Positions 1,096 to 51,020 of a stretch of DNA of 64,000 nt are shown here, one piece after another. The notes under the pieces were generated by a model. It made no database searches, had not been told where the DNA came from, and saw only the letters and a program-made list of their open reading frames with translations. This DNA is from a bacterium. Its GTDB lineage: Bacteria; B130-G9. The stretch is taken from the NCBI GenBank assembly GCA_035527515.1, contig DATLAJ010000114.1, forward strand, positions 7,994 through 71,993, written 5' to 3'. A program made the translations under genes and the position numbers. How positions within the stretch are numbered: position 1 is the first letter of the stretch; every line of letters starts with the position of its first letter.

Positions 1096-3129
1096 ATGAG
1101 AACAGCATTTGTATGTGTCATCCTTGCGGCCTTTACCTTGCTGCCGTTGGCAGCGACCGCGGCCCCTACAATCACGATCTACACGGACGCCGACACGTAT
1201 CAGTCCGGCGACACGATTGAGGTGAGCCTTTCGGCTGAGAATGACGGTGAAGGGATGGCCGTTGACCTATATGTGGGAATCATCTTGCCAGACGGGGACA
1301 TCTGGTCCACGCAATACGATGGCTGGAGGCATCTCATCGAGCCGTGGGTCCCGGATATCTACGTGCCCGCCTGGTTCGAGATGGGAACTACCCCGTTTTG
1401 GACCTTCAACCTGCCGTGCGAAGTACCACCTGTAGGAGATGCAGGCGATTATGCCTTTGCTGCGCTCTTAACCTACCCAGGCACATTCACCTATGTGAGC
1501 ACGGCCAGCCTGACCCCGTTCACAGTGAATGCGACAGGATCGCATTACTATGTCAACGGCTCGACAGGTGACGACTCCAGCAAGGGATCGTTCGGCTCTC
1601 CCTGGAAAACGATAGCCCACGCCCTGGCGTCGGTTGAGGGCTCCGAGGACAATCCCGTGACGATTCATATCGTCCATGGCACCTATGCCACCTCAACCAA
1701 TGGCGAGACGTTCCCCCTCAACATGAGTAGTCATGTATCCCTTACAGGTGATGGCCCTAGCACCACGACTCTGGACGCGGAGGGCTCGGCCTACCACGTC
1801 ATCTACTGCGATGGTGCAAACAACCTCACCATAGAGAATGTCACAATAACTGGTGGCAATGCTAATGGCAGTTCATACCCGGATTGGAGTGGCGGCGGGA
1901 TATTCTGCTATAAGAGTTCGCCGACGATCGCAAACAGCACGATCTCAAACAACACTACTGACACCGGCGGCGGGGGGATTTACTGCTCGGACAGTTCGCC
2001 CATCATCTCAAACAACACGATCTCGGGCAACTCGGCCGACTACACCGGCGGCGGGATATGCTGCTGGGGTGGTTCACCGATGATCGAGAACAACACGGTT
2101 TCGGGCAACACTGTTTCGGCCGGCGACGGCGGCGGGATATACTGCTACGGAAGTTCGCCGACCATCAAGAACAATACGATCACGGGCAACAGAACCAGCG
2201 GCTCCTACACCTATGGCGGCGGGATATACTGCGAGGGCGGTTCGCCGACCATCAAGAACAACACGATCACAGGTAACAGTGCCAACCTCTGGGGCGGCGG
2301 GATATACTGCTCTAACAGTTCGCCGACGATTGAAAACAACATAATCACGGACAACAGTGCTTACTGCGGCGGCGGGATATGCTGCGAGAACGATTCGCCG
2401 ACTATCTCAAACAATACGATCACGGGCAATAGTGCCGACCGCGGCGGCGGGATAGCCTGCTATTGGTACAGTTCGCCGATGATTGAGAACAACACAATCA
2501 CGGATAACAGTGCCTACCGCGGCGGCGGGATATTCTGCTACGAGAACAGTTCGCCGATGATTGAGAACAACACAATCACAGGCAACAGTGCCAACTGGTT
2601 CGGCGGCGGGATATACTGCTATAAATGTTCGCCGAGTATCTCAAACAACACAATCACGGGCAACACTGCCGACGACGATGGTGGTGGAATATACTGCTAT
2701 AAAAGTTCGCCGAGGATTGAAAACAACACGATCATTAGCAACTCGGCCTCTTGGGGCGGCGGGATATGCTGCGAGCACTACAGTGCGCCGGTCATCTTCG
2801 ACTGCATCATCTGGGGCAACGGTGACGACCTTTATGACTGCTCGGCAACCTACTGCTGCATTGAGGGCGAGGATGCGGGCGAGGGTAACATCCACGACGA
2901 CCCGATGTTCGTTACAGGTCCCCTGGGGAAATACTATTTGCACCCGGATAGTCTGTGCATAGACGCCGGGCGCATATCGGTTAGCGCCGCGGGCCTTTCT
3001 GACCGGACCACCCAGGCGGACGGCACGCCCGACACGGGGATCGTGGATATGGGCTACCATTATCCTCCCTTAACGCAGTTGGCAGTTGGCAGTTGGCAGT
3101 TGGCCCTGACACAGGAGGCTGTCCTATAA
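1096..3129 (+). CDS. secreted right-handed parallel beta-helix repeat protein (pectin-lyase fold/DUF1565-like) with N-terminal ~115-aa accessory domain
   Basis: Signal peptide MRTAFVCVILAAFTLLPLAATAA. About 15 tandem 22-26 aa coils of the form SSPTIxNNTITGNSAxxGGGIYC, a conserved YHYP motif near the C-terminus, and the capping motif DPMFV...YYLHPDSLCIDAG. RBS aaaagggagcggg lies upstream. Confidence 0.8.
   Translation: MRTAFVCVILAAFTLLPLAATAAPTITIYTDADTYQSGDTIEVSLSAENDGEGMAVDLYVGIILPDGDIWSTQYDGWRHLIEPWVPDIYVPAWFEMGTTPFWTFNLPCEVPPVGDAGDYAFAALLTYPGTFTYVSTASLTPFTVNATGSHYYVNGSTGDDSSKGSFGSPWKTIAHALASVEGSEDNPVTIHIVHGTYATSTNGETFPLNMSSHVSLTGDGPSTTTLDAEGSAYHVIYCDGANNLTIENVTITGGNANGSSYPDWSGGGIFCYKSSPTIANSTISNNTTDTGGGGIYCSDSSPIISNNTISGNSADYTGGGICCWGGSPMIENNTVSGNTVSAGDGGGIYCYGSSPTIKNNTITGNRTSGSYTYGGGIYCEGGSPTIKNNTITGNSANLWGGGIYCSNSSPTIENNIITDNSAYCGGGICCENDSPTISNNTITGNSADRGGGIACYWYSSPMIENNTITDNSAYRGGGIFCYENSSPMIENNTITGNSANWFGGGIYCYKCSPSISNNTITGNTADDDGGGIYCYKSSPRIENNTIISNSASWGGGICCEHYSAPVIFDCIIWGNGDDLYDCSATYCCIEGEDAGEGNIHDDPMFVTGPLGKYYLHPDSLCIDAGRISVSAAGLSDRTTQADGTPDTGIVDMGYHYPPLTQLAVGSWQLALTQEAVL
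3082..3104. repeat. short tandem heptad repeat (GTTGGCA x3) at 3' end of CDS 1096-3129
   Basis: gcagttggcagttggcagttggcc is read directly in the sequence. It encodes the atypical tail QLAVGSWQLAL, which is absent from the paralogs. Confidence 0.6.
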
Positions 3130-3272
3130 GTGCATCTGCATGGAAGAATCCCTGTGTTGAAGGATGCCTGACCCTGGATGTAGGGGCGGTTCACGAACCG
3201 CCCGACCTCAGCGCCACAACAGATTGTGGGCGATTCGTGAATCGCCCCTACAAAAAACACGCCTGGCTCCTT
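3128..3272. repeat. ~145-bp structured repeat element, copy A (inverted partner at 11132-11279); contains a nested 74-bp palindrome
   Basis: About 95% identical to the reverse complement of 11132-11279. The core is tgtaggggcggttcacgaaccgccc...gggcgattcgtgaatcgcccctaca, with outer arms TGTAGGGGCG/CGCCCCTACA and two 9-bp-stem hairpins. The track ORFs 3060-3260(-) and 11073-11279(+) give near-identical peptides (MFFVGAIHESPTICCGAEVGR...) only because they translate the repeat. Confidence 0.75.
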
Positions 3273-7975: not shown

Positions 7976-8146
7976 CTATTCGTCCTTGTTTGCAGGTGGG
8001 CGGCGAAATGCCTCGCGCATCTTCGACATTATTTCGATTTTCTCGGCAAAAGGAAGCCTAGACAGCTGCTTCCTTACTTTGTCTCTCTCCTCACTGAAGA
8101 CTTTCCAGAATTGCTGTGAGTCTTTGATATAGAGGAGTTTCTTCAC
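7976..8146 (-). CDS. small basic ORF (56 aa), stop codon directly abutting the TTG start of the downstream oxidoreductase
   Basis: Minus-strand GTG start at 8146. Translation is VKKLLYIKDSQQFWKVFSEERDKVRKQLSRLPFAEKIEIMSKMREAFRRPPANKDE. It is below the 60-aa track cutoff, has a GAGG-like RBS 9 nt upstream and clean lysine-rich composition. Confidence 0.3.
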   Translation of the reverse strand: MKKLLYIKDSQQFWKVFSEERDKVRKQLSRLPFAEKIEIMSKMREAFRRPPANKDE

Positions 8147-10946: not shown

Positions 10947-11050
10947 ATCTTTATCTGTGCCCAAATACAGTAGCACAGAAGATTCGCAACACGACACGCT
11001 ATTGTCAAACAGTCTTTGTGAGAGGAAGGGGCGCTCCCCGACCCAGGGCG

Positions 11051-11125
11051 GCCTCATCGCACGGCGCAAGCGGTGGCGATGCGAGAGACTATCATTGCCC
11101 TAGCCCCCATCTTCGGAGGTTGTCC
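11051..11125. repeat. degenerate copy (X1) of two-hairpin repeat family X
   Basis: cctcatcgcacggcgcaagcggtggcgatgc...cccccatcttcggagg resembles 22289-22397. The first hairpin is intact and the second is decayed. Confidence 0.5.
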
Positions 11126-11131
11126 AATGAA

Positions 11132-11279
11132 GGGGCCAGGCGTGTTTTTTGTAGGGGCGATTCACGAATCACCCACAATATGTTGTGGCGCTGAGGTCGG
11201 GCGGGACGTGAACCGCCCCTACATCCAGGGCCAGGCATCCTTCAACACAGGGATTCTTCCATGCAGATGCACTTACTAG
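11132..11279. repeat. ~147-bp structured repeat element, copy B (inverted partner of 3128-3272)
   Basis: The reverse complement aligns with 3128-3272 at about 95% identity, including the nested palindrome tgtaggggcgattcacgaatcacccacaatatgttgtggcgctgaggtcgggcgggacgtgaaccgcccctaca. Confidence 0.75.
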
Positions 11280-21157: not shown

Positions 21158-22197
21158 CTTATGAATGACAGTATCCGTTCTAGCAGCACTCGGCTGTCTC
21201 GCACAAGATATGACGTATCCCGCCAGCACCCATAAATGCAGCCCCGGCACGGCCTGACAAGCTCGGCAACCTTTCGGCTGTATTCCTTGGAACCGAAGAA
21301 CGTCAAAAAATCGTCGTCGAGCACGTTACAGAATGGCTCAATCTCATCGCACGGCGAGAGCGACCCGTCCGGAAAGACCACGAAGTAGAGCCATCCAGCG
21401 TCGCACGCGAAGCTATAGTCCCCCGTCTTTAACGCCTCTCTTGAAGCCTCGAGGAACTTCATTGAGGCGCCCACGCGCTTGCCTCGCCGCTTCATCTCGA
21501 TCACCGCGTCGTACGCCTCATCGATGAGTGGGGCGTCATCCCGCCCGAAGGTCATCTCCTCGGCATAGCTGCGGATGAGGTTCTCCTGCTTGTCTGACGG
21601 GAGCAGATGCACTGGCACAAGGCTCGAATACGCGCCAAGCCCATCGACAAACTCGACGATCTGAGGCAGCTCTTTGATATTCTGCCTCGAGACGACAGTG
21701 TTGACGACGTTGACCGAGTTGGGCAGCCGCTTGACGACGTGCCTGATGGTGCTCACGGCGGAATCCCACAGGCCGTTGGAGCCACATATTTCGTCCTGCT
21801 TTGCAGCGTCGAGCGTGTCGAGTGAGACGGTAAAATGCTCTGCGCCAGCATCTATCACGGCATCGATCCGCGCAGGCGTTACGGTCTTGGCTCCCGTCGT
21901 CTGGACGCGAACCGCGATGCCCGCCTCAGTGAACGCCCTCGTAATCTGGGGCAACTCCTCGCGCACGAAGGGCTCGCCACCGGTGAAGACGACGTTCGGC
22001 ACACCGATTCTGCGCAAGCGGCTTGCGATCTTGGCGACGCTCTCGACCGGCGGCTCCTCGGCCACGTTGCCGTATTTCCATATTGAGCACATCTTGCACT
22101 TGAAGAGGCACCGGCGTGTTATGTAGTAGTGCACGTAGAACGGCTTGTGCAGCAGTTTTGACTTGAGAACGTCAGAGAATATCTTGAGTTTTCGCAT
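21154..22197 (-). CDS. radical SAM / SPASM-domain protein
   Basis: CxxxCxxC site RRCLFKCKMCSIW and the glycine-rich FTGGEPF. The C-terminal Cys-rich SPASM-like region is CDAGWLYFVVFPDGSLSPCDEI...CRGCIYGCW. Confidence 0.8.
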   Translation of the reverse strand: MRKLKIFSDVLKSKLLHKPFYVHYYITRRCLFKCKMCSIWKYGNVAEEPPVESVAKIASRLRRIGVPNVVFTGGEPFVREELPQITRAFTEAGIAVRVQTTGAKTVTPARIDAVIDAGAEHFTVSLDTLDAAKQDEICGSNGLWDSAVSTIRHVVKRLPNSVNVVNTVVSRQNIKELPQIVEFVDGLGAYSSLVPVHLLPSDKQENLIRSYAEEMTFGRDDAPLIDEAYDAVIEMKRRGKRVGASMKFLEASREALKTGDYSFACDAGWLYFVVFPDGSLSPCDEIEPFCNVLDDDFLTFFGSKEYSRKVAELVRPCRGCIYGCWRDTSYLVRDSRVLLERILSFIR

Positions 22198-22288
22198 GTC
22201 CCGGCTCTATGGCTTTCGACTAAAATCAGTTAGCAGCCTTAATCTATAGCCCCGGCTGGGCATGGTCAATGGGGATGAGAGAGAGAGG

Positions 22289-22397
22289 CCACATCATCGC
22301 CCGGCGCAAGCGGTGGCGATGCAGCCGGCTACCATTTTGATTAACCCCCATCTTCAGATGGGGGATGTGCGGCACACAAAGACCTCGCCTCTATCCC
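22289..22397. repeat. repeat family X copy X2: two-hairpin element
   Basis: Hairpin 1 is CATCGCCCGGC-gcaa-GCGGtGGCGATG (GNRA loop). Hairpin 2 is CCCCCATC-ttca-GATGGGGG, followed by gtgcggcacac. About 90% identical to 22740-22828. Confidence 0.55.
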
Positions 22398-22627
22398 ATT
22401 CAGATGAGGATTCCGGGAAGGAAGGAGAGGGAGGGGGGCGCCTCGGCCTCCTCAGATCACCCGACTGAAGTCGGGTGCTAATACAATGAGAGCCATCTGT
22501 ATCACCGCGTTAAAACGCAGTGATTAGGCCAGCGGGAGGTGTGGGGCGGGCTTTCTAGCCTGCCTTTCCTTCGCGGAGGTCACGCTGGCTAGCTCATCCA
22601 CCCGGAGTAAGCGGCATGTGAGGGCTA

Positions 22628-22828
22628 CCTCATCGCCCGGCGCAACCGACACTTGAGGCCACATCGCCCGGCGCAACCGACACGCGCGAGCACATCATCG
22701 CCCGGCGCAACCGACACTTGAGGCCACATCGCCCGGCTTCAGCCGAGGCGATGCAGACGGTTACCATTTTCATTAACCCCCATCTTCAGATGGGGGATGT
22801 GCGGCACACCGAGACCTCCCCTCTATCC
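22628..22828. repeat. repeat family X copy X3 with 3.5 tandem ~32-bp sub-repeats (atcgcccggcgcaaccgacac + 10-13 nt) followed by the two-hairpin element
   Basis: The unit catcgcccggcgcaaccgacacttgaggcca recurs at 22630, 22661, 22694 and 22727. Then catcgcccggcttcagccgaggcgatg and cccccatcttcagatggggg are read directly. Confidence 0.55.
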
Positions 22829-22845
22829 TCTTCAATGGACCTCGA

Positions 22846-23199
22846 TCATACAGGCACCCCCTCGCGCCGCAGGTTCAAGAGGATTGGGCTATTCAGCGAT
22901 GAATAATTGTCCTCAGAAACAGGATAGACCGACATCAAGACGTTGTGCTCAAGATTCAGATCGGCAACAATATCTATCATCCTGTCGATCTCATCGAGCG
23001 GGCTAACCTCGCCTCTTGAAACAACTGCCAAGTCGATGTCGGAGACCCCGGTCGCATCGCGCCCACGCGGCTGCTGCCACATAAGAATGGACGGGCGGAG
23101 ACAGGCCCCGCAAGCCACCCAGTGACGCGGCCACGAATGAACATCAACGGACGCGCTGCAACCCCCGCAAGGGGGTACGACGGGTAGCCGTGCGTGCAA
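22846..23199 (-). pseudogene. nucleotidyltransferase (MNT/KNTase-type, toxin-antitoxin-like) remnant lacking the normal N-terminal helix
   Basis: RGRDATGVSDIDLAVV...LDEIDRMIDIVADL...ILLNLRREGVPV matches the minimal NTase signature (GS.ARG....SDIDL.V). The preceding in-frame 37 residues (MHARLPVVPPCGGCSAS...) are unlike any NTase N-terminus. No HEPN partner follows; repeat X3 lies there instead. Confidence 0.45.
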
Positions 23200-23447
23200 C
23201 GCAACGGAAACGGAGAGGAGGGATTGGGTCCTCGGTCTCCTCGCACCGTCAGGCTGCGCCTGCGGCTACCAGTGGTATGCTCTTGCGGGCAAATGTTATT
23301 CGCCGTTATTTAGGGGCTGCCTGAACACGCCCAGCGGAGATGTCATTCTCGCGTGCGATCGCGACTTGCGTTTCTGCCTCATCGGTGGCAACAATGCCAG
23401 AGTATAGATTGATTTGGAGATGAGCACTTCTGCGGGAGGGTGTTTCG

Positions 23448-32105: not shown

Positions 32106-32173
32106 ATCCCCTTGCGGGGATGCGGGAAGAACGCCGTCAGTTGAGCAGGCCCGGGCACGATTACGAAAACTCA
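32106..32173. repeat. conserved 68-bp upstream element, copy Y1
   Basis: atccccttgcggggatgcgggaagaacgccgtcagttgagcaggcccgggcacgattacgaaaact is about 90% identical to 33844-33910, with the terminal hairpin flipped (ccccTTGCgggg versus ccccGCAAggg). Confidence 0.6.
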
Positions 32174-33843: not shown

Positions 33844-33910
33844 ATCCCCGCAAGGGCATGCAGGAAGAACGTCGTCAGTCGAGCAGGTCCGGGTACGATT
33901 ACGAAAACTT
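33844..33910. repeat. conserved 68-bp upstream element, copy Y2
   Basis: atccccgcaagggcatgcaggaagaacgtcgtcagtcgagcaggtccgggtacgattacgaaaact lies about 95 nt upstream of nth. Track ORFs 32094-32489(-) and 33739-34323(-) merely translate it. Confidence 0.6.
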
Positions 33911-41189: not shown

Positions 41190-44100
41190 TTATCTCACCG
41201 TGCCAGTGATTGTGAAAGGCACTGAATCGACGGATATGAAGTTGGAGCCTATTGCGCCGGATTCGGCGAGCGCCGCGGCGTAGATGTAAGAGCCCGGCTC
41301 AACGTGCGGGACGCTCAGCTCGAAGACCATCTCAGGCCCGAAGCTGAAGCCCGTGGGCAGAACCCAATCCACAGCCCACGGCCAGAGCCCGAAGCCGAAA
41401 CCCTCCTCGACGAGGCAGATAATTGAGCCATCCGGCAGGATAAAGCCGACGAACGCGTCCACCGTCATCTCGGGACCCTCGTTCACGACTTCAAGATAGG
41501 CCTGCATCAGATCGCCGGCCGCGAACTCGTCCGCGTTCAGCGAGCAGAACACCTCCGCCTCAATCGGCGCCCCCGGAATCGGATAATGGAATCCCATATC
41601 GACAGTCCCGGTGTCGGGCGTCCCGTCAGCCTGAGTCGTCCTGTCGGCCACGCCCGCCTCGTGAGACCATCTGTCGCCTCCATCGATGCAAGGGCTATTC
41701 GGGTGCAGGTAATAGTCCCCGAATGGGCCGGGGACAAACATCGGGTCGCCATAGATATTCCCCTCGCCCTCGTTACCATCCTTGATGCAGCAGTAGCTCG
41801 TGGAGCATCCGGATAGGTCGTCATCATTGCCCCAGATGATGCAGGCTTCAATGGTTGGATTGCCTTCCCTCTCAGAATAGATACCACCGCCTGCGCCGGA
41901 TTCCGCTGCCGAGTTACCAACTATAGTGTTATTAGTGATGCTTGGCGAGCTATGAGAGCTGCAGTATATACCTCCGCCATCGAAACCAAACCGCCCGTAC
42001 ACCTCATTCCCGATAATCAAGTTGTTTGAAATGGTTGGCGAACTGAGTGCGCAGTGTATTCCGCCTCCATGCTTGTCCGCTCTGTTATCGGTGATCGTGT
42101 TGCCCGAGATCGTTGGCGAACTCTGGCTCAGATACATACCGCCGCCGTCGTCCCATACGGAGTTGCTCCTTATTTCGTTTTCCACGATCGTCGGGGAACT
42201 GTGCTCGCAGTAAATGCCTCCACCGTTGCCCCATGAGGAGTTACCCGTTATCGTGTTGGCCTCGATCGTCGGCGAACTATCATTTTCGCAGCAAATACCT
42301 CCACCAATTCCGCCAGCATCGGTGTCATTTGTGCTGATGATGTTGCCGGAGATCAGAGGTGAGCTCTCATCGCAGAGTATGCCTCCGCCGAACGTGCACC
42401 CGTGATTGTTGGCGATCGTGTTATCCATGATTGTCGGCGAGGAGTACTTGCAGCATATCCCTCCACCACCACCAATATCCGTTCCGGGTGGATAAACAAT
42501 GTTATATGTGATGGTGTTACTTGAGATTATGGGGGAGCTCTGCTCACAGTACACCCCGGCGCCGAACTGATATGCCCAGTTGTTTAATATGGTGTTCTGT
42601 TCAATAAGGGGCGAGCTGTCCCCCTCGCAATAGACTCCGCCTCCCGACCCGTACACGTCATTGAAAGAGATGGTGTTATAGAGGATGGTTGGAGAGCTCT
42701 CGACGCAGCAGATGCCGGCGCCGTAGTCGCGCGATGCGTTGTCGCTGATTGTGTTGCTTATGATGTCTGGTGCGCTGTCGCGGCAGTATATGGCACCGCC
42801 GTTGACCGCGTGGTTATCCGTTATTATGTTGCTCTGGATTCGCAAAGAGCTGTTGACGCAATACACTGCCCCGCCGGACTGATCAGCCTCCGACTCACCA
42901 TAGGCCGAGCCGCCGGTCATCGTGAGGTCCTCCACAATGACGTTCTCCACATCAATGCAGCGAATTATATGATAGGCGGAGTACTCCCCGTCGAGAATGG
43001 TTGTGTCGGCGCCGGCGCCTGAGATGGACACGAGGCTTCTCATCGTGAGAGGGTAGATCTCGCCGTTCGTGGTCGCCGAATACGTGCCGGCCGCAACGTG
43101 GATGACCGCCGGACTCGTTTGGGAGACCACGGCTAAACCCAGGGCGCAGCTAATAGTCTTGAACGGTGCGTTGAGGGAGCCATCGCCCAAATCATCGCAG
43201 GCCTGGCCATTCACGTAGAGGTGCTGCGTACCCTCAGCCCAAATCACAAGCCTTTCAGTGGCCGGCTCCGACCACTGAGAATCATCGTCCTGAACCCGCA
43301 ATGAAATAGTTTGCGTGCCTAGCGAAAGACCGGCTGCTGGTTTTTGAAAGCTCTTCTCAGAAGATAAAACGCCGTCCAGGTTGGAACTCCATTGGTAAGC
43401 CTCGATTCCCCCATCCTTGTCGGTGCCATGGCCGCGGAATTCAATTGTGTCCCTGCCGTATATCGCGGGATTCGGCGATATCGAATCGATGTAGGCCACC
43501 GGTCTCGGAAACTGAGCCTCAATGACGAGCTTTTCGGTAGCCGCTTCTGACCAGACGCCCAAATTGTCCCGCACTTTGTAGGAGATGATGTGCGAGCCCA
43601 ATTCCAGCCACGATGCGGGGTAGCTGAAGCGGTTGTTGGTGCTGAGAATCCCTTCGAGGTCGGAGGACCATTCGTGCCTCTGCACGGCCCCGTCAGTATC
43701 GGTCCCGTGCCCGACGAATCGAATCGTGTCCATGTGTTGTGTAGCCGGATTGGGCAATATCGAATCGATATGTGCGATCGGTCGTTCGCCTGCCGGGATA
43801 GGGTAGTGATAGCCCATATCGACCGTGCCGGTGTCCGGGGTGCAGTCGTCCTGCGTCGTCCGGTCGGAGAGCCCGGCCTCTTCTGCCGACATGCTGCCGG
43901 CGTCTATACAAGGACTCTCCGGGTCGAGGTAGTAATCACCAAACGGTCCGGTCGTGAACATCGGATCGCATTCGATATTCCCCTCGCCGGAATAAAGGCC
44001 GTATCCCTGCCAGACGCAGCAATACGTCGGCGTTCCGATGTTATGATTGGTTTGACCTATGAAGATGCAATCCCGGACATCAATGCGGCCATCTTCGTTC

Positions 44101-47100
44101 TCTATTGCATCTGCGCCCCACCCTGAGTAATTCCCCTTAAATGTGCAGTTATCAATTACTGTGCTAAAACCACCAAAACTGCCACAGTATATCCCACCAG
44201 CTTTGCCCCAGCCCACATTGTTGCCAATAATCAGGTTGTTCTCAATAATCGGATTGGCTGCATTGATCCCCGCTCCCTGAGATTGTACCCTGTTGCCACG
44301 TATGATGTTAGCTTCGATAACGATTCTGCTCTCTGCTCCTATAGACGAGATGCCTCCCCCGAATTGAGCATGATTATTCTCAATCACATTGTTTCTGACC
44401 TCAGTGGCGCTATACCTACAGTATATCCCCCCACCGGAACTGAATGACGTCTCACTTGCACCGTTTTCCGTTATTATATTGTCTAGTATTTTGAGATCGC
44501 TGTTGCAGGAATATATGCCGCCGCCGCCGTTTTCTTCATGTTCATAGTCCCAATGACTCCCTGTGCCTCCCGTAATGGTCAATCGTTCAATTGTTGCGCC
44601 GGTCACATTGATACAGTAGAATATATGTCTGGAGTACATCTCTCCGTCGAGAATAGTATTTTCCGCACTATCGCCGACGACGGACACCCAGCTCTTCATG
44701 TTGAGTGGGAAGATCTCGCCGTTGGTCGAGGCAGCGTAGGAGCCGGCCGCGACGTGGATCGTGATCGGATCCGCCTCGGCTCCCCCATAGCGAAGGCTGC
44801 GGTTTATCGTCTTCCAGGGGGAGCCTTCGGACCCGTCATAAGAGTCGTCACCCAGCTGGCCATCGACGTAATAGTGGGAGCCGACCGCCTCGTAGATCTG
44901 AAACGGGCACTGGTCAACGGAGAGGATGCCTAAGGAGCCTGTGCCCGCGCGGGAGACCGCGGTGAGGAACGTATAGCTGCCAGGTGCAGCCTCGGCTGGG
45001 ATAACTAGTTCGAAGACCATCTCAGGCCCTGCGGCGAAGCCAGAAGGCAGGATCAGATCGGAATACCAGGGCCAGATGCCAACTCCGAAACCGTCTTGGG
45101 TGAGCGAGACCATCGAACCGTCCGGCAGCACGATTGCGGCGAAGATGTCCACCACAACATCCGCGCCTCGGTTCTCAACGCTCATAAAGCCCTGCAAGAC
45201 ATCACCCGCCGCGAACTCGTCCGCGTTCAGCGAGCAGAACACCTCCGCCTCAATTGGCACGCCTGGAATCGGATAGTGGTAGCCCATATCGACAGTCCCG
45301 CTGTCGGGCGTCCCGTCAGCTTGCGTCGTCCTATCGGATACGCCCGCCTCCTCCGCCGATTGGCTGCCGGCATCGATGCAGGGGCTGTTGGGGTGCAGGT
45401 AGTAGTCGCCGAACGGGCCGGGAACGAACATCGGGTCATCCGAGATGTTGCCCTCGCCGGTCCAGTTCCTAATGCAGGAATACGTAATAGTGGCGTCACA
45501 GGAGTACATCTCGTGGCCTGGAGTCGCGTTGTCGGCCCAAATAATGCAGTTGCTGATCGTCCCATTGCACCGATAGAGCCCGGCGCCAAAGTCGGCGCGG
45601 TTGCCGGTAATGGTACAGTTGAGGACCGTGGCCTTGCAGACAAACAAGGCTCCGCCGTCCCCTTCTGCCGAGTTGTTTGAGATGATGCAATCCTCGATCA
45701 GACCATGGCAACGTGCAAGCCCGCCTCCGCCAACATCGGTGTCCGCCCCGGCATAGGTCCAGTTGTCATCAATCGTGCAGCCCGCGATCCTGCCGCTGCA
45801 TTGATAGAATCCGCCCCCATCGAACAAGGCGCCGTTGCCGATTATCTCGCAGGATATGATCTCACCGTGACAACCCGCTAGCCCTCCGCCGTCGTGCCCG
45901 GTGTTAATGAAGACGCTGCAGCGTTGTATGATGCCCTGGCAGCCGTAAAGACCTCCACCGTACTCGCCGGCGCAGTTATTGCTGATCGCGCACTCTGTGA
46001 TAAGGCCGTCGCACGCTGCGATACCGGCGCCGCATTCAGCGGAATTAGATTCTATCGCGCAATTGAGAATCGAGGCCTTCGCGTGATGCGTCCACTTGGA
46101 GGCGCCCCATACTCCTCCCCCATATTCGCTCCAACCGTTGGTAATCGTCATTCCAGCGAGCTGGCAAGTCTCATCCTCTGTGCCATCGAATGCGACAACT
46201 GGCCCCAGTTCTTGTCCATCGATGATCGTAGCGGATACGATGTCGGAATCGCTAGGGTCCGTTGATCTCAGCGTCACATTTCGTCCTCCGAACTGGATGT
46301 TCTCATAATACGTCCCCGGGTGGACGATGACAGTATCGCCATCACGGGCGGCGTCGATGGCTTTCTGGATGCTCTTGAAATCTCCGGACCCGTTTTCCTT
46401 GACCTCGTATGTGATCGGCCTGTCGCTGTGGCATATGAACGAGGTCTGAGAGAGATCGGTGAGCATAGCGCTTGAATCCATCGAGCCGTGCTCATAAACC
46501 GCCGAATAAACCGTATAGTTGCCTTCAAGGGCTGTGTCACTCAATTCGTAGCCGAACGTATCGACAAAAGCACTCTCCGGCCCAAGGGATACGTCGGCAA
46601 TCCAGGGGGTCATATCAGCAGATAGCGATGGGATGAAAAACAGTTGTCCGCCGGGAACTTCGATCGCCGCATAGACGTCAACCTGCCGCTCAGTGTCCGA
46701 GCTTCCCGCGTGGATCGATAGCTTGGCGGTCTCGCCAGTTCCGTAGGTCTGCCTGTCGGCTTCTACATAGACGTAGCAGCCGACAGGGTACTCATAGGCC
46801 CCCATGTCAACAATCCGGTTGGCTATTCTCGGACCACCCTCAACGTCCCTGAGGCCTGCGACATAAGAATTACTTCCCGTGTCAATGCACGGCGAATAAG
46901 CGGAAAGATGGTAATCGCCGTCAACAGCATCGACGAACAGCGAGTCGTCGGAGATGTTGCCCGCGCCCGAAGCCTCCCAATGGCCAATGCAGCTGTTGAA
47001 CGATGTGAACGATGAGTCATCTGGGTAAACATCGGGGCCTTCAGGGGCCCAGTTACCCCAGACGATGCTGTTGAATATCTTCCCGCTAAACTCGTAAATC

Positions 47101-47840
47101 CCCCCTCCTTCCTCGGCCAAGTTGCCAGCTATGGTGCAGTTCCTGATTGTGGGCGATCTCTCGTAACTCCAAATCGCACCCCCCTCTGGCGCGGAGTTAT
47201 CGCAGATGAGGCAGTTGGCAAATAGGCCATCGCAGGCGCGAATCGCACCACCATACGCGCCGATATTGCCGGAGATGACGCAACGAACGATCTCACCCCG
47301 ACAATCATAGAGGGCCCCACCGCCTGATGCCTGATTCCCGGCAATCCAGCAGCCCTTGATTCGACCGTCGCAGCCACAAAACCCGCCACCCGAACTTGCA
47401 GTGTTGCCGTAGATGATACAATTGTAGATCGAAGCCATTGAATGGGGTCCATCCTCCAATCCGCCGAATATCCCACCGCCATTGGTCGCTGAGCCGTTTG
47501 TCATCGTAAAACCCGAAAGCAAACACGCCTCGTCCTCCGCGCCCGAGAACTCGACCACTGAGCCGAGCTGCCGACCGTCGATGATCGTCGCCTCAACTAC
47601 GTCCCAATCCTCAGAATCCATCGATCTCAGGACGATATTCTTGCCCTTGAACCCCACGTTCTCATAGTAGGTGCCCGGGTGGACGATGATGGTGTCGCCA
47701 TCCACGGCGGCATCGATCGCGTTCTGAATAACCGTGAAGTCGCCCGTGCCGTCCTGATTGACGTGATACTCGGCCGCAAGTGTGGGATAAGCAAGAAGGA
47801 GAGATAAGCAAAGCACAGTGATTTGAATAAGTGCTTTCAT
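41190..47840 (-). CDS. giant (2216 aa) secreted multi-module beta-helix repeat protein with Ig-like and ~115-aa accessory domains
   Basis: Signal peptide MKALIQITVLCLSLLLAYPTLA. It contains three copies of the module EYHVNQDGTGDFTVIQNAIDAAVDGDTIIVHPGTYYENV + GGG-IYC beta-helix coils + DPMFVPGPFGDYYLHPNSPCIDAG cap, two Ig-like domains (PIAHIDSILPNPA..., PVAYIDSISPNPA...) and two C-terminal copies of the FCSLNADEFAAGD...LPDGS domain. Confidence 0.8.
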   Translation of the reverse strand: MKALIQITVLCLSLLLAYPTLAAEYHVNQDGTGDFTVIQNAIDAAVDGDTIIVHPGTYYENVGFKGKNIVLRSMDSEDWDVVEATIIDGRQLGSVVEFSGAEDEACLLSGFTMTNGSATNGGGIFGGLEDGPHSMASIYNCIIYGNTASSGGGFCGCDGRIKGCWIAGNQASGGGALYDCRGEIVRCVISGNIGAYGGAIRACDGLFANCLICDNSAPEGGAIWSYERSPTIRNCTIAGNLAEEGGGIYEFSGKIFNSIVWGNWAPEGPDVYPDDSSFTSFNSCIGHWEASGAGNISDDSLFVDAVDGDYHLSAYSPCIDTGSNSYVAGLRDVEGGPRIANRIVDMGAYEYPVGCYVYVEADRQTYGTGETAKLSIHAGSSDTERQVDVYAAIEVPGGQLFFIPSLSADMTPWIADVSLGPESAFVDTFGYELSDTALEGNYTVYSAVYEHGSMDSSAMLTDLSQTSFICHSDRPITYEVKENGSGDFKSIQKAIDAARDGDTVIVHPGTYYENIQFGGRNVTLRSTDPSDSDIVSATIIDGQELGPVVAFDGTEDETCQLAGMTITNGWSEYGGGVWGASKWTHHAKASILNCAIESNSAECGAGIAACDGLITECAISNNCAGEYGGGLYGCQGIIQRCSVFINTGHDGGGLAGCHGEIISCEIIGNGALFDGGGFYQCSGRIAGCTIDDNWTYAGADTDVGGGGLARCHGLIEDCIISNNSAEGDGGALFVCKATVLNCTITGNRADFGAGLYRCNGTISNCIIWADNATPGHEMYSCDATITYSCIRNWTGEGNISDDPMFVPGPFGDYYLHPNSPCIDAGSQSAEEAGVSDRTTQADGTPDSGTVDMGYHYPIPGVPIEAEVFCSLNADEFAAGDVLQGFMSVENRGADVVVDIFAAIVLPDGSMVSLTQDGFGVGIWPWYSDLILPSGFAAGPEMVFELVIPAEAAPGSYTFLTAVSRAGTGSLGILSVDQCPFQIYEAVGSHYYVDGQLGDDSYDGSEGSPWKTINRSLRYGGAEADPITIHVAAGSYAASTNGEIFPLNMKSWVSVVGDSAENTILDGEMYSRHIFYCINVTGATIERLTITGGTGSHWDYEHEENGGGGIYSCNSDLKILDNIITENGASETSFSSGGGIYCRYSATEVRNNVIENNHAQFGGGISSIGAESRIVIEANIIRGNRVQSQGAGINAANPIIENNLIIGNNVGWGKAGGIYCGSFGGFSTVIDNCTFKGNYSGWGADAIENEDGRIDVRDCIFIGQTNHNIGTPTYCCVWQGYGLYSGEGNIECDPMFTTGPFGDYYLDPESPCIDAGSMSAEEAGLSDRTTQDDCTPDTGTVDMGYHYPIPAGERPIAHIDSILPNPATQHMDTIRFVGHGTDTDGAVQRHEWSSDLEGILSTNNRFSYPASWLELGSHIISYKVRDNLGVWSEAATEKLVIEAQFPRPVAYIDSISPNPAIYGRDTIEFRGHGTDKDGGIEAYQWSSNLDGVLSSEKSFQKPAAGLSLGTQTISLRVQDDDSQWSEPATERLVIWAEGTQHLYVNGQACDDLGDGSLNAPFKTISCALGLAVVSQTSPAVIHVAAGTYSATTNGEIYPLTMRSLVSISGAGADTTILDGEYSAYHIIRCIDVENVIVEDLTMTGGSAYGESEADQSGGAVYCVNSSLRIQSNIITDNHAVNGGAIYCRDSAPDIISNTISDNASRDYGAGICCVESSPTILYNTISFNDVYGSGGGVYCEGDSSPLIEQNTILNNWAYQFGAGVYCEQSSPIISSNTITYNIVYPPGTDIGGGGGICCKYSSPTIMDNTIANNHGCTFGGGILCDESSPLISGNIISTNDTDAGGIGGGICCENDSSPTIEANTITGNSSWGNGGGIYCEHSSPTIVENEIRSNSVWDDGGGMYLSQSSPTISGNTITDNRADKHGGGIHCALSSPTISNNLIIGNEVYGRFGFDGGGIYCSSHSSPSITNNTIVGNSAAESGAGGGIYSEREGNPTIEACIIWGNDDDLSGCSTSYCCIKDGNEGEGNIYGDPMFVPGPFGDYYLHPNSPCIDGGDRWSHEAGVADRTTQADGTPDTGTVDMGFHYPIPGAPIEAEVFCSLNADEFAAGDLMQAYLEVVNEGPEMTVDAFVGFILPDGSIICLVEEGFGFGLWPWAVDWVLPTGFSFGPEMVFELSVPHVEPGSYIYAAALAESGAIGSNFISVDSVPFTITGTVR

Positions 47841-47875
47841 AGTGAATTGCTCCTATCTCTTAGGTTTGCGTGAAC

Positions 47876-49924
47876 TCAACCGCCACTAATCGTAAACGAA
47901 CTCACTGACGTGCGTAAGAAGGCCTGCTCCCCCGTTTGGGAGACCGCGGCGGCATAAGCGCAGTCTCCTGGGGGAGCATTGCCGGGCACGGTTAGGTCCA
48001 GTATCTTCAGAGGGTCTATGGTGGCGTTGCAGTCAAGAAAGACCGACGTTGCGAAGGGGAAGATGCCGAAATAGGCACCATCCGGCCCAATACAGAGGAC
48101 GCTCCCGTCGGGCAGAATCAACCCTATATAAACGTCCACTACGACTTCAGAGCCATGGTTCTCCACGCTCAGGTATGCTTCGAGGTCATCCCCTGGGCCG
48201 AATTCGTTGTCATTAAGGGAGGTCTGGATGGTCACGGCGAAGATGGGATAGTGGTATCCCATATCGACGGTTCCTTTGTCGGCGCCTCCGTCGCTCCGGG
48301 TGGTGAGCTTGTCCAGGCCGAGGTTCTCGGCCGTGTCGCTGCCGGCGTCGATGCAGGGGCTATCCGCATCCTGACCCGCCGTCAGGGAGGACAGATAGTA
48401 GTCACCCAGTGGCCCAGTTGCGAAGACCGGGTCTTGGCTGATGTTGCCAACGCCGCCTTGCGTCCAGTTTTGAATGCAGCTGTAAGATGGCGTGCAACGG
48501 TCCGGCCCCACTTCCCCTGCATCGCCGTTGCCCCAGATAATGCAGTTGGTGATGGCGCCTGTATGGAAGTAAACGCCGCCGCCGTTTTCTGCTGCCGAGT
48601 TGTGAGCTATTGTGCAGTTCTGGACCATCCCCTGGCAATGGCCCAGGCCACCTCCCGCGTTGTAGTCAGCAACATTATTGATTATCAAACAGTTCTTGAT
48701 CTGTCCGTCGAAGTCGTATATACCGCCTCCACAACCCATGTCTGCGAAGTTGTCCCTGATGACGCAGTCTTCAAGCGTTCCAGAGCAAGAGTCCAAGCCC
48801 GCTCCCATCCACGACACGTTACCGGAAATCGTGCAGCCCTTGATAATTCCATGGCAATCGCAAAGGCCGGAGCCAGTGTTGTTGCTTATTGTGCAGTATT
48901 CTATGTTTCCCACCCATACGTGTATCCCGGCACCGTCCGTGCTAGAGAAGTTTCCTGTCCAGTTATCGTCTATAAGGCAGTTTAGAATGTCTCCTTCACA
49001 ATCATACATCCCCCCTCCTGTAAAAACGGCTGCGTTGCCGGTAATCCGGCTATTGGCGATATTGCCTCTCCATTGGTAAAGACCGCCCCCTGCTCCCTGG
49101 ATGCCGTTGTCGCTGATTACACAATTATCGATGCTCCCAGTGCTTTCGGATAGCCCACCCCCGTCTCCGTATTCTGTCCAGTTCGAGAGTATGGAGCACC
49201 GGGCGATCTCTGCACTGCAATCATGGAGACCTCCACCGTCATGGCTCGCGGAGTTCTGTTTAACTGTGCACGCCACCATGCTGCCCTCGAACCTGAAGAG
49301 CCCGCCACCGCTGCCATCCGCCGTGTTTCCGATTATGAGGCAGTTTTCAAGGCTGCCACCAAAACACTCGGCGAGACCTCCGCCCCATCCCGCTGTGTTA
49401 TCCCTGATTGTGCAGTTCTCTATTGTCCCGCTGCACCACATCAGGCCGCCGCCTGACGCGCCAACGGCCCCAGCCGCAGTGTTCTGCGTGATCACGCAGC
49501 CTGTAATCGAGGCTTTCGTATGAGGCGCGTTCCATTTGCGGGCGCCGCAGATTCCACCGCCGTAGCCGTTCTTCCCGTTTGTGATCGTAAAACCCGAAAG
49601 CAAACACGCCTCGTCCTCCGTGCCGTAAAAGGCAACAACTGGGCCGCTCTGGCCGCCATCGATGATAGTGCTCTCGACGCAGCCTGCGTCTTCAGGATCA
49701 ACGGAACAGAGCACGATATTCTTGCCCTCAAAACGGACGTTCTCGTAGTAGGTCCCCGGGTGGACGATAACGATGTCGCCATCAATTGCGACATCGATCG
49801 CGTTCTGAATGACCGTGAAATCGTCGCTCCCGTCCTGATTGACGTGGTACTCCGCCGCAAGGGCCAGAATGCCGATGCAGTGCAGAATAACGAATACAGC
49901 CAGACCTATTGCTAGCATTCTCAT
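47876..49924 (-). CDS. secreted beta-helix repeat protein, paralog of the giant's N-terminal module
   Basis: The first ~75 residues are near-identical to the giant: AAEYHVNQDGSDDFTVIQNAIDVAIDGDIVIVHPGTYYENVRFEGKNIVL. It has beta-helix coils with conserved Cys, the DPVFATGPLGDYYLS cap, and the C-terminal accessory domain IQTSLNDNEFGPGD...LPDGS. Confidence 0.8.
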   Translation of the reverse strand: MRMLAIGLAVFVILHCIGILALAAEYHVNQDGSDDFTVIQNAIDVAIDGDIVIVHPGTYYENVRFEGKNIVLCSVDPEDAGCVESTIIDGGQSGPVVAFYGTEDEACLLSGFTITNGKNGYGGGICGARKWNAPHTKASITGCVITQNTAAGAVGASGGGLMWCSGTIENCTIRDNTAGWGGGLAECFGGSLENCLIIGNTADGSGGGLFRFEGSMVACTVKQNSASHDGGGLHDCSAEIARCSILSNWTEYGDGGGLSESTGSIDNCVISDNGIQGAGGGLYQWRGNIANSRITGNAAVFTGGGMYDCEGDILNCLIDDNWTGNFSSTDGAGIHVWVGNIEYCTISNNTGSGLCDCHGIIKGCTISGNVSWMGAGLDSCSGTLEDCVIRDNFADMGCGGGIYDFDGQIKNCLIINNVADYNAGGGLGHCQGMVQNCTIAHNSAAENGGGVYFHTGAITNCIIWGNGDAGEVGPDRCTPSYSCIQNWTQGGVGNISQDPVFATGPLGDYYLSSLTAGQDADSPCIDAGSDTAENLGLDKLTTRSDGGADKGTVDMGYHYPIFAVTIQTSLNDNEFGPGDDLEAYLSVENHGSEVVVDVYIGLILPDGSVLCIGPDGAYFGIFPFATSVFLDCNATIDPLKILDLTVPGNAPPGDCAYAAAVSQTGEQAFLRTSVSSFTISGG

Positions 49925-50147
49925 GTCCCGATTCTCCTTCTATATTGCTGAGTTCGCCGATCCAACTCCTCTGCCATTAGGTCCATAGATTCTCAAAACC
50001 AGCCAGCTGTTCTATGGGCATACGCCATCTAAAGCCGACGAAACCTAACTTAGCGCACATTTTGACACCAGAAAGATACAAAGAATACAGTAAAACAGAG
50101 ACCAAAACAAGCGCGCCATGTCCAGCGTCCACAGCTGCGACGAGGCT

Positions 50148-51020
50148 TCAGCGTCCTAGATTCTCTGTGTCTCTGTGTCTCTGTGGTGAGATGAGGGACC
50201 GGAAAGTTCTTAAATTGCATTCGTCGTCGCAGCTGTCGTCAACAGGCGTCTCGAGTATGAACGGCAGGTGGGCAAGTTTGGGGTGATTGACGATATTGCG
50301 AAAGCCTTCCATGCCGATATTGCCCATCCCGATGTGGTAGTGCCGGTCAACATGCGAGCCGAGCGCGACCTTCGTGTCGTTGACGTGGACGACCTTGAGC
50401 CGATCGATACCGATGAGACGGTCCAGCTCATCCAGCGTAGACTCGAGCCCGTGTGCGGCTACAACGTCATATCCGGCGGCGAACGCGTGCGCCGTGTCGA
50501 GGCAGACGTATAACCTGTCGGCAGACTTGCAGCGCTCGATGATGCGGGCGAGCTCGGCGACGGTGTGGCCAATAATATGGCCCGAGCCAGCGCTGTTCTC
50601 AAGCAGAAGCGGCGCATCATATTCCTGGCTCAATACCTCGTCGAGACCTCTGGAAACAGTCTTGAGTGCGTCGTCGAGATCGCGGCCGCGGGCGGAGCCG
50701 ATGTGCGTGACGACGAACTGTGCACCGAGATGGTCGGCCCTTTCAAGCGAAGTTTTGACCGCACGCCTGGACCGCCACGCGAGTTTCGGGTCGGGGCTTG
50801 CCAGATTGATCAGATACGGCGTGTGGACGACGACAGCCTCGATGCCATAATCCGAGACGAGGCGGCGGAATGTCTGCGCCTCGCCGTCGTCCAAATCCTT
50901 AACGCGCCATCCTTTGGGGTTCTGCGCGAATATCTGAAGCGCGTTACAGCCCAGCTCGTGCGCCCTCTCAACGGCGTTGTAATACTTGCCAGCAACGGAG
51001 AAGTGCATCCCGACAATCAA
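50148..51020 (-). CDS. nfo: endonuclease IV (AP endonuclease, xylose-isomerase-like TIM barrel)
   Basis: MIVGMHFSVAGKYYNAVERAHELGCNALQIFAQNPKGW, HTPYLINLASPD and HIGS match Nfo metal-binding blocks. Confidence 0.8.
   Translation of the reverse strand: MIVGMHFSVAGKYYNAVERAHELGCNALQIFAQNPKGWRVKDLDDGEAQTFRRLVSDYGIEAVVVHTPYLINLASPDPKLAWRSRRAVKTSLERADHLGAQFVVTHIGSARGRDLDDALKTVSRGLDEVLSQEYDAPLLLENSAGSGHIIGHTVAELARIIERCKSADRLYVCLDTAHAFAAGYDVVAAHGLESTLDELDRLIGIDRLKVVHVNDTKVALGSHVDRHYHIGMGNIGMEGFRNIVNHPKLAHLPFILETPVDDSCDDECNLRTFRSLISPQRHRDTENLGR

Follow-up and report, generated by a model that had tools for sequence, protein, structure and literature searches.

A dispersed family of two-hairpin palindromic repeats associated with one clade of IS200-related Y1 transposases

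The stretch of bacterial DNA analysed here (64,000 nt; contig DATLAJ010000114.1 of assembly GCA_035527515.1, GTDB lineage B130-G9, positions 7,994 to 71,993 of the forward strand; hereafter, the window) contains four palindromic repeat modules at two loci, three in forward orientation (A, B and C) and one inverted. Modules B and C, together with a short tandem array, are located between the 3' end of a decayed nucleotidyltransferase gene on the minus strand and a radical SAM gene. The initial annotation of the window had placed this locus in a divergent promoter region, but it lies downstream of the decayed gene; the only promoter-like site, at 22269-22241 on the minus strand, is found between module B and the start codon of the radical SAM gene, and no T-run follows any of the hairpins. 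The modules belong to a dispersed, extragenic, palindromic and modular family, the stems of which are conserved by compensatory change and which is associated, both physically and statistically, with one clade of Y1 transposases. The basic module of ~85 nt consists of a GC-rich hairpin (hairpin 1), a conserved linker of ~22 nt, an unpaired tag YTAR, represented by the variants TTAA, CTAA and CTAG, and a second hairpin (hairpin 2) with an 8-bp stem and a TTCA loop. The copies in the window and their parts are as follows.

11050-11117, plus strand: module A, truncated (nhmmer E 7e-12 against the unit model, positions 9-76; alignments).
11055-11081, plus strand: hairpin 1 of module A, GCAA variant, followed by the linker and the tag CTAG.
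11104-11114, plus strand: hairpin 2 of module A, represented by the 5' arm and the loop start only.
22287-22372, plus strand: module B, forward type (sequence comparison, nhmmer and folds).
22295-22321, plus strand: hairpin 1 of module B, CATCGCC-CGGC-GCAA-GCGG-T-GGCGATG, followed by the linker ..GGCTACCATTTTGA.
22341-22344, plus strand: tag of module B, TTAA.
22345-22364, plus strand: hairpin 2 of module B, CCCCCATC-TTCA-GATGGGGG.
22373-22452, plus strand: doublet centre, with a CT-rich tract, the small hairpin ATCCCA-TTCAGAT-GAGGAT and the GA-rich tract GGGAAGGAAGGAGAGGGAGG, jointly able to form hairpin 3.
~22453-22535, minus strand: inverted, diverged module (nhmmer match of the module at 22509-22455 on the minus strand, E 3e-7).
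22458-22477: read on the plus strand, CACCCGAC-TGAA-GTCGGGTG; on the minus strand, the hairpin-2-like CACCCGAC-TTCA-GTCGGGTG, a perfect 8-bp hairpin.
22501-22524: read on the plus strand, ATCACCGCG-TTAAAA-CGCAGTGAT; on the minus strand, the hairpin-1-like ATCACTGCG-TTTTAA-CGCGGTGAT, followed by the linker ACAGATGGCTCTCATTGTAT and the tag TTAG.
22631-22737, plus strand: tandem array (Tandem Repeats Finder (TRF): period 31, 3.4 copies, 84% matches; units of 31-34 nt).
22720-22839, plus strand: module C, of the forward type and with the TTCA loop, the ancestral form (nhmmer E 1e-32; positions 7-126 of the model).
22727-22753, plus strand: hairpin 1 of module C.
22773-22776, plus strand: tag of module C, TTAA.
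22777-22796, plus strand: hairpin 2 of module C, with the beginning of the CT-rich centre after it.

Over 108 nt, copies B (22295-22402) and C (22727-22834) share 88% identity, and copy A, which is cut off inside the loop of hairpin 2, gives a partial alignment from 11047-11096 onward. These three forward copies had been listed in the initial annotation and are indeed present, but the fourth, inverted one had been missed: module B aligns locally with the reverse complement of this copy with a score of 50, compared with 17 +/- 3 for shuffled sequences. Module B, the central CT/GA-rich hairpin and the inverted copy form one quasi-palindromic unit of ~250 nt (22287-22546; nhmmer E 2e-68), and the DNA fold of 22280-22550 has z = -3.8. 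Module C, which shares 96% identity over 108 nt with a related locus (L018), has no inverted partner after it. The 20-mer corresponding to hairpin 2, CCCCCATCTTCAGATGGGGG, is found at two positions of the window only, 22345 and 22777, with 0 occurrences expected (100 dinucleotide-preserving shuffles), and CATCGCCCGGCGCAA, the 5' half of hairpin 1, occurs 6 times with up to 2 mismatches versus 0.42 expected. The two loops of hairpin 1, GCAA and TTCA, had initially been taken for a covariation-like swap within a preserved stem. Closer comparison does not bear this out: the difference is a lineage-specific 9-nt patch, TTCAGCCGA to GCAAGCGGT, which weakens the inner stem in the folds, and among all loci compared the GCAA form is restricted to sequences of the window's own organism.

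A motif search had been proposed as a check of the distribution of the repeat, and a scan of 185,579 species genomes (one per species) with the hairpin-2 20-mer yielded 55 loci. At least 17 of the stretches fetched from CBDVDH01 and at least 13 from CAYZPW01, both related and uncultured, carry the exact 20-mer within the complete module, as do at least 3 from a Coatesbacteria metagenome-assembled genome (MAG), in the same context as in the window; further, inexact copies in the relatives were detected by nhmmer. The relatives carry tens of extragenic copies in mixed orientation, which, judging from crude open reading frame (ORF) calls, nearly fill the intergenic gaps. All copies had been described as promoter-proximal, but with similarly crude gene calls, 17 of the 22 classifiable sites in the relatives lie between co-directional genes, 3 between convergent and only 2 between divergent ones. 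The orientation of the unit with respect to the flanking genes is mixed as well (~8 same, 6 opposite; non-orthologous sites). An all-against-all BLASTP comparison of the flanking ORFs revealed no protein family recurring beside the repeat, only spurious repeat-crossing ORFs and unrelated genes, including SUMF1-like, LRR-Roc and radical SAM ones, and a literature search with the hairpin sequences returned no matching papers. Finally, two Logan contigs of the window's organism (L057 and L058; positions 1-40) start inside hairpin 1 of module B, 126 nt upstream of the radical SAM gene, so that independent assemblies break at the repeat, as expected of an assembly-breaking sequence.

Conservation among the aligned loci spans ~250 nt and defines a full unit with the order hairpin 1, linker and hairpin 2; the CT-rich/GA-rich central hairpin; CACCCGAC-TGAA-GTCGGGTG; and ATCACCGCG-TTGAAA-CGCGGTGAT. 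Read in reverse complement, the final two hairpins and the stretch that separates them correspond to a diverged copy of the first module: nhmmer matches of the module occur on both strands, and the forward and inverted types can be aligned across hairpin 1, linker, tag and hairpin 2. The doublet centre is conserved in 17 full units. At other loci, we observed single units, head-to-head inverted doublets, inverted-then-forward pairs, and partial and tandem runs (L003, L027, L053, L139). That every combination of modules is seen corresponds to the mosaic behaviour of bacterial interspersed mosaic elements (BIME) and of the hairpin-forming doublets (REPIN) of repetitive extragenic palindromes (REP). 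Within hairpin 2, pairing is maintained in 98.4% of the cells across 40 modules of both types, and 4 of the 8 pairs change on both sides, which was unmatched by any shuffle or slid register; examples of compensatory stems include CCCCCATC/GATGGGGG, CACCCGAC/GTCGGGTG and CCCCCGAA/TTCGGGGG. Because the forward copies were chosen by exact match, this variation comes from the inverted and inexact copies.

A different type of repeat was observed next to the modules in some genomes. In four CBDVDH01 loci (L013, L032, L037 and L039), it is located in the ~70 nt that adjoin the unit on either side. The unit of 250 nt in L039 is placed between inverted repeats of ~45 bp beginning GTAGGGGCG..GGTCTCAGACC; the right-hand arm is matched in L013, L032 and L037, and L013 and L032 also have a partial left arm. 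The ~45-bp arms are halves of a GTAG-type REP, so that the two repeat families are nested and may spread together. The window itself contains a second REP family with the canonical GTAG tag, which forms inverted doublets (TGTAG-GGGCGGTT-CACG-AACCGCCC ... GGGCGATT-CGTG-AATCGCCC-CTACA) at 3179-3252 and at 11150-11225, the latter 33 nt from module A. These doublets suggest that the genome also hosts a classical system of REPs and REP-associated tyrosine transposases (RAYT).

At a Thermoanaerobaculia locus (L016), a 155-aa ORF encoding a Y1 transposase (PF01797, E 9e-28) lies between two copies of the hairpin in inverted orientation. When this protein was used as a tblastn query, homologues were identified close to the hairpin, as genes for a 147-aa Y1 (HUH) transposase, in 6 of the 55 loci (L003, L016, L048, L038, L012 and L031), which represent several phyla; L003 is from the genome richest in the window's family and belongs to the element's own lineage. 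There, a GA-rich tract, an inverted module and then a forward module follow within ~10 nt of the Y1 stop codon. The same layout is found in L059, L139 and L141, and in L142 a forward module lies ~22 nt downstream of the stop codon; in all five of these own-lineage loci, the modules begin ~10-45 nt from the Y1 stop codon. In L144, also of this lineage, a partial unit is located upstream of the Y1 gene. The junction between rnfA and the Y1 gene is syntenic in L003 and L059, with 84% protein identity, as would fit vertical inheritance. However, the ENA sample ERZ26661670 contains two Y1 paralogues, with 82% identity over the 76% of the L003 query that is aligned. At L139 3336-4110 (ERZ26661670 NODE_12), the second of these is followed by 2.5 tandem whole units with a period of 293 nt, which carry the hairpin-2 variant CCCCCGAA-TTCA-TTCGGGGG.

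The six Y1 proteins (141-162 aa) share the invariant residues D55-H56-x-H58, W96 and Y116-I117-x-x-Q120-x-x-H123-H124, with WA in place of WQ in L003, and pass the NCBIfam IS200/IS605 model NF033573 with 74-78 bits (cut-off 55). A metagenome scan with the alignment of these six proteins yielded 80 loci encoding this Y1 clade. In 50 of the 65 loci for which both flanks were available, the flanks of the Y1 gene are mutually inverted repeats (z > 4). Within 300 nt of the Y1 gene, the density of perfect hairpins, defined by a stem of at least 7 bp and a 4-nt loop, is 3.9 per kb, compared with 0.19 per kb beyond 800 nt, a 20-fold difference, and the loop is TTCA, TTTA, TGAA, TAAA or TTAA in 162 of the 176 near-gene hairpins. 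At least one hairpin with a TTYA, TRAA or TTAA loop is located within 300 nt of the gene in 59 of the 80 loci, TTYA loops being predominant upstream and TRAA loops downstream. Many of the hairpins have TAA or TAG at the outer foot, and many loci also carry an inner hairpin of the AAACCGT-TTCA-ACGGTTT type. The stems vary by lineage, and the tag and loop are kept; the TTAA-CCCCCATC-TTCA-GATGGGGG of the window is a typical member of this clade-wide pattern. Genes of the Y1 clade are flanked by tagged hairpins in Acidobacteriota, Ignavibacteriota and Bacteroidota, as well as in uncultured lineages, one repeat-bearing Coatesbacteria MAG among them, and dispersed copies of the hairpin were found in several of these groups.

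Clusters of similar hairpins were also seen away from the gene. In an Ignavibacteriaceae genome (JAHBUO01; L019 1843-3163) and in L012, seven hairpins of the hairpin-2 type follow each other in the same orientation every ~190-240 nt, with a Y1 gene nearby on the same 469-kb contig, in arrays that resemble cassette arrays. Integron attC sites were considered as a candidate for the hairpin clusters in Ignavibacteria and Psychroflexus; the structure there is one of several separate hairpins rather than one bulged R''-L''/L'-R' hairpin.

We consider it likely that the repeats are non-autonomous mobile DNA modules of the REP/BIME type, mobilised on single-stranded DNA by an IS200-related Y1 transposase. 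Hairpin 2 and its tag would be the recognition site of a small, single-tyrosine transposase of the HUH type encoded elsewhere in the genome and belonging to the IS200-related clade with the Y---Q--HH motif (TnpA-Y1 subclass 1.2). By analogy with the TnpA proteins of IS608 and ISDra2 and with E. coli TnpA-REP, the enzyme would bind the hairpin as it folds in the single-stranded DNA of the replication fork, and would cleave and rejoin the DNA beside it, spreading or rearranging the modules. Of the two possibilities raised in the initial annotation, a functional RNA or a protein-recognised hairpin, it is the second that agrees with the dispersed palindromes and with the presence of the hairpin-2 type at the flanks of Y1 genes; the first is not accompanied by any Rfam match.

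Several observations speak against this interpretation. No empty-site/filled-site pair was found for the putatively mobile modules, and the copies common to the two related genomes look orthologous, so that turnover may be slow. The tag differs from GTAG, and one CBDVDH01 subfamily lies between the ~45-bp inverted repeats of a different, GTAG-type element, on which some of the spread may thus be piggy-backed. In the five loci of the element's own lineage that were examined with flanks, the modules are one-sided, downstream of the Y1 gene in L003, L059, L139, L141 and L142 (z = 0.1 for the flanks of L059), unlike the symmetric flanks seen in most of the rest of the clade. The Y1 protein does not qualify as a classical RAYT: it scores 27 bits, within a range of 22-37 bits, with the NCBIfam REP_Tyr_transpos model NF047646 (cut-off 80), its best relative of solved structure is ISDra2 TnpA, with IS608 TnpA also among the closest structures, and no PDB match to the E. 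coli RAYT was obtained at E <= 1. Finally, tblastn detected no Y1 gene in the window, and five look-ups for the gene of the same organism did not find it, the closest homologues all being from other samples. The transposase link thus rests on the relatives.

The same palindromes might instead fold in a transcript, the ~250-nt unit or the module being a structured non-coding RNA, such as a multi-copy small RNA or a cis-regulatory leader (for example, a GGA-rich sponge of the CsrA/RsmA type). Consistent with an RNA, the both-sided substitutions keep the stems, the RNA folds of the two strands have z = -2.2 and -2.0 (-3.8 as DNA), a GGA-rich tract is present, RsmY is matched weakly on the minus strand (19 bits, E 0.024), and PMC3733652 describes REPs elsewhere as acting post-transcriptionally at the RNA level. 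However, the RsmY match is far under the gathering score of 57; Rfam 15 gave 0 matches at the gathering score in the whole window and in 8 related loci, and its E-value mode returned nothing real for 22150-22900. Both orientations of the module occur in each unit, so that neither strand is favoured, and the orientation relative to neighbouring genes is mixed, which makes a strand-specific role unlikely. Furthermore, the sequence upstream of the units is unconserved, the hairpins are not followed by a T-rich terminator, and the association with a DNA transposase gene is tight. A structured RNA is accordingly an unlikely primary identity for these repeats, but RNA-level side effects, as for REPs generally, are possible, as are effects on neighbouring genes, for example through RNA stability or local DNA structure.

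The modules could also be remnants or miniatures of ordinary autonomous IS200/IS605 elements, that is, fragments of their left or right ends, rather than parts of a REP-like system with a domesticated transposase. This is what one might read from the score of the Y1 protein with the NCBIfam IS200/IS605 model (76 bits versus 55), from the solved structures closest to it (ISDra2, IS608 and related TnpA) and from the occurrence of two Y1 paralogues in one sample. Nevertheless, no tnpB was seen beside any of the Y1 genes examined; the flanks in the clade are mostly inverted repeats, unlike the ends of IS200/IS605 elements, which lie on the same strand; and the fetched loci contain more than 15 modules per Y1 gene. 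Synteny of the rnfA-Y1 junction in L003 and L059 points to a gene fixed in the chromosome, and the Y---Q--HH motif and the length of ~148 aa match subclass 1.2, which is low-copy and not IS-like (PMC6006769). We regard derivation from ordinary IS elements as improbable and favour REP-like modules served by a resident Y1 enzyme.

The tandem array at 22631-22737 was described correctly in the initial annotation as a repeat of ~32 bp that reuses the 5' part of hairpin 1 with linkers too short for CRISPR spacers. Each unit consists of the first ~23 nt of the module (GGCCACATC(ATC)GCCCGGCGCAA), followed by CCGACAC and a short linker, the unrelated part being 8-12 nt long, and a super-unit of 65 nt is itself duplicated (22627-22672 versus 22692-22737, 98% identity). 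The array was absent from every related locus examined. We read the array as a local duplication of the module 5' end, by slippage or aborted processing. The likeness to "iteron or REP arrays" noted in the initial annotation thus holds for the dispersed extragenic palindromes, which are REP-like, but not for iterons. A functional array, be it iterons for a replication or partition protein, a degenerate CRISPR-like array or the RNA array of a type III toxin-antitoxin system, would explain the regular 31-34-nt spacing, the conserved 22-nt core and the ability of each core to form a small CGG-CGCAA-CCG hairpin, but is very improbable given that the array is confined to this window, that each unit is simply the 5' part of the adjoining module, that two of the three linkers are identical owing to the 65-nt duplication, and that the neighbours encode a radical SAM protein, a decayed nucleotidyltransferase and sppA, with no cas, rep, par or toxin gene adjacent. 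In particular, CRISPR arrays have repeats of 23-50 nt, unique spacers of similar length and cas genes nearby, in contrast to the ~22-nt core, linkers of 9-12 nt and non-cas flanks found here.

Other candidates were considered and rejected. A small peptide starting at the ATG in the conserved stretch ..AATGAGAGCC.. is not compatible with the compensatory stem changes, which alter its residues, and in one relative a gene starts there only after truncation of the element. A self-cleaving ribozyme or circular RNA, brought up by partial X-Y-X duplications, found no ribozyme matches, and the 'Y' half is an inverted 'X'. A miniature inverted-repeat transposable element with terminal inverted repeats is contradicted by the restriction of the ~45-bp inverted repeats to one CBDVDH01 subfamily, in which they belong to the GTAG-type element. 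A promoter or terminator role was dismissed, the sole promoter-like site lying outside the modules and no hairpin having a T-run.

More tentatively, we propose that subclass-1.2 Y1 transposases are the hub of a widespread, multi-phylum REP-like system, representing either a second, independent domestication of Y1 transposases with repeats of their own or an intermediate step; we see this as a plausible scenario rather than a probable one. The signature of such a system would be the YTAR tag, a paired 8-bp stem that varies by lineage, a TTCA or TTTA loop and a second, inner hairpin, and the element in the window would be a member from an uncultured lineage that has a Coatesbacteria MAG among its relatives.

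Several further features of the window were recorded. The nucleotidyltransferase gene next to module C (22846-23246, minus strand; MNT-antitoxin-like) is apparently split by a frameshift near 23060, with ..LCGSSRVG.. in one frame and ..RDATGVSDIDLAVV.. in another; it gave no Pfam match, and the ENA record of the contig to which the window belongs (ERZ27256828, contig k141_1321282) has no gene call at this place. An imperfect inverted repeat of 44 nt (23164-23207 and 23246-23289; 70% complementary, 38 nt apart) is placed in the untranslated stretch between this decayed gene and sppA. A direct repeat of 66 nt (32106-32171 and 33844-33909; 85% identity), which begins with the hairpin ATCCCC-TTGC-GGGGAT, is found just upstream of a long plus-strand ORF in each case and could be a shared leader or regulatory element. 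Repeats with a period of 78 nt (1891-2778) lie inside the ORF 1096-3129, and repeated blocks in the 41190-51020 region lie inside the very large minus-strand ORFs 41190-47840 and 47876-49924; both appear to be coding repeats unrelated to the hairpin modules.

REPs and RAYTs are the standard example of a host that retains a transposase along with many non-coding repeats, but nearly all systems characterised so far have class 2 Y1 enzymes and GTAG hairpins, and most are from Proteobacteria. The locus described here leads to a class 1, IS200-like Y1 clade with the same life-style, another tag and a loop conserved across several phyla. It offers a candidate recognition code, consisting of tag, stem and TTCA loop, for an enzyme family without an assigned function, and bears on the question of whether Y1 transposases were domesticated once or repeatedly. 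In practical terms, such repeats break metagenome assemblies and create spurious ORFs.

Among known repeats, BOX of Streptococcus pneumoniae, ERIC and Correia elements are, like the modules described here, modular and intergenic, with a tandemly reiterable sub-module and strong secondary structure. No cognate Y1 transposase is known for any of them, and they have no known sequence relation to the repeats in the window. The modules also resemble the REP/BIME/REPIN-RAYT systems of E. coli and Pseudomonas (PMC3116915, PMC3479197, PMC6006769): in both cases, short extragenic palindromes with an unpaired tag at the foot are dispersed in tens of copies, frequently as inverted doublets and in mosaic clusters; two hairpin subtypes are paired oppositely, like the Y and Z REPs of E. 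coli; and hairpins flank the gene of a small Y1 HUH transposase in a REPtron-like manner, here at the loci of the relatives. The REP tag is GT[AG]G, whereas here it is TTAA, CTAA or CTAG, and a GTAG in front of the same hairpin is confined to the Thermoanaerobaculia relatives. Two hairpins are joined by a conserved 22-nt linker, and the TTCA loop is conserved across phyla. RAYTs are of class 2 (Y---NP), whereas the enzyme here is of class 1 and IS200-like (Y---Q--HH), having failed the NCBIfam RAYT model, and the copy number is tens per genome rather than the hundreds known for REPs.

With IS200/IS605 elements such as IS608 and ISDra2, the system shares the protein fold family, and their recognition of a hairpin together with a short guide or tag is the mechanistic model that we borrow, by analogy, for the modules. 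The ends of IS200/IS605 elements are left-end and right-end hairpins on the same strand (PMC6006769), whereas here the flanks are inverted, no tnpB is seen and the non-coding modules far outnumber the gene. The Y1 proteins agree with the features listed for subclass 1.2 in Table 1 of PMC6006769, namely, the HuH motif DH[VI]H, W(Q), YIxxQxxHH and a length of ~148 aa. Quentin et al. (2018) described this subclass as low-copy, not IS-like, occurring mostly in Cyanobacteria and Bacteroidetes, and 'REP: no' (PMC6006769); the flanking hairpins in 59 of 80 loci and the inverted flanks in 50 of 65 contradict this description, though not the membership. Bertels et al. (2017) reported a RAYT-like 'IS200 Group 3' without duplicates and with abundant flanking 16-mers (PMC5581495), which may be the same clade as subclass 1.2. 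REP-like elements served by Y1 enzymes were thus already known, and Group 3 may partly anticipate the association; what is new here is the link to a class 1 (Y---Q--HH) enzyme clade reported as REP-less, the YTAR tag with its conserved loop, and the two-hairpin module.

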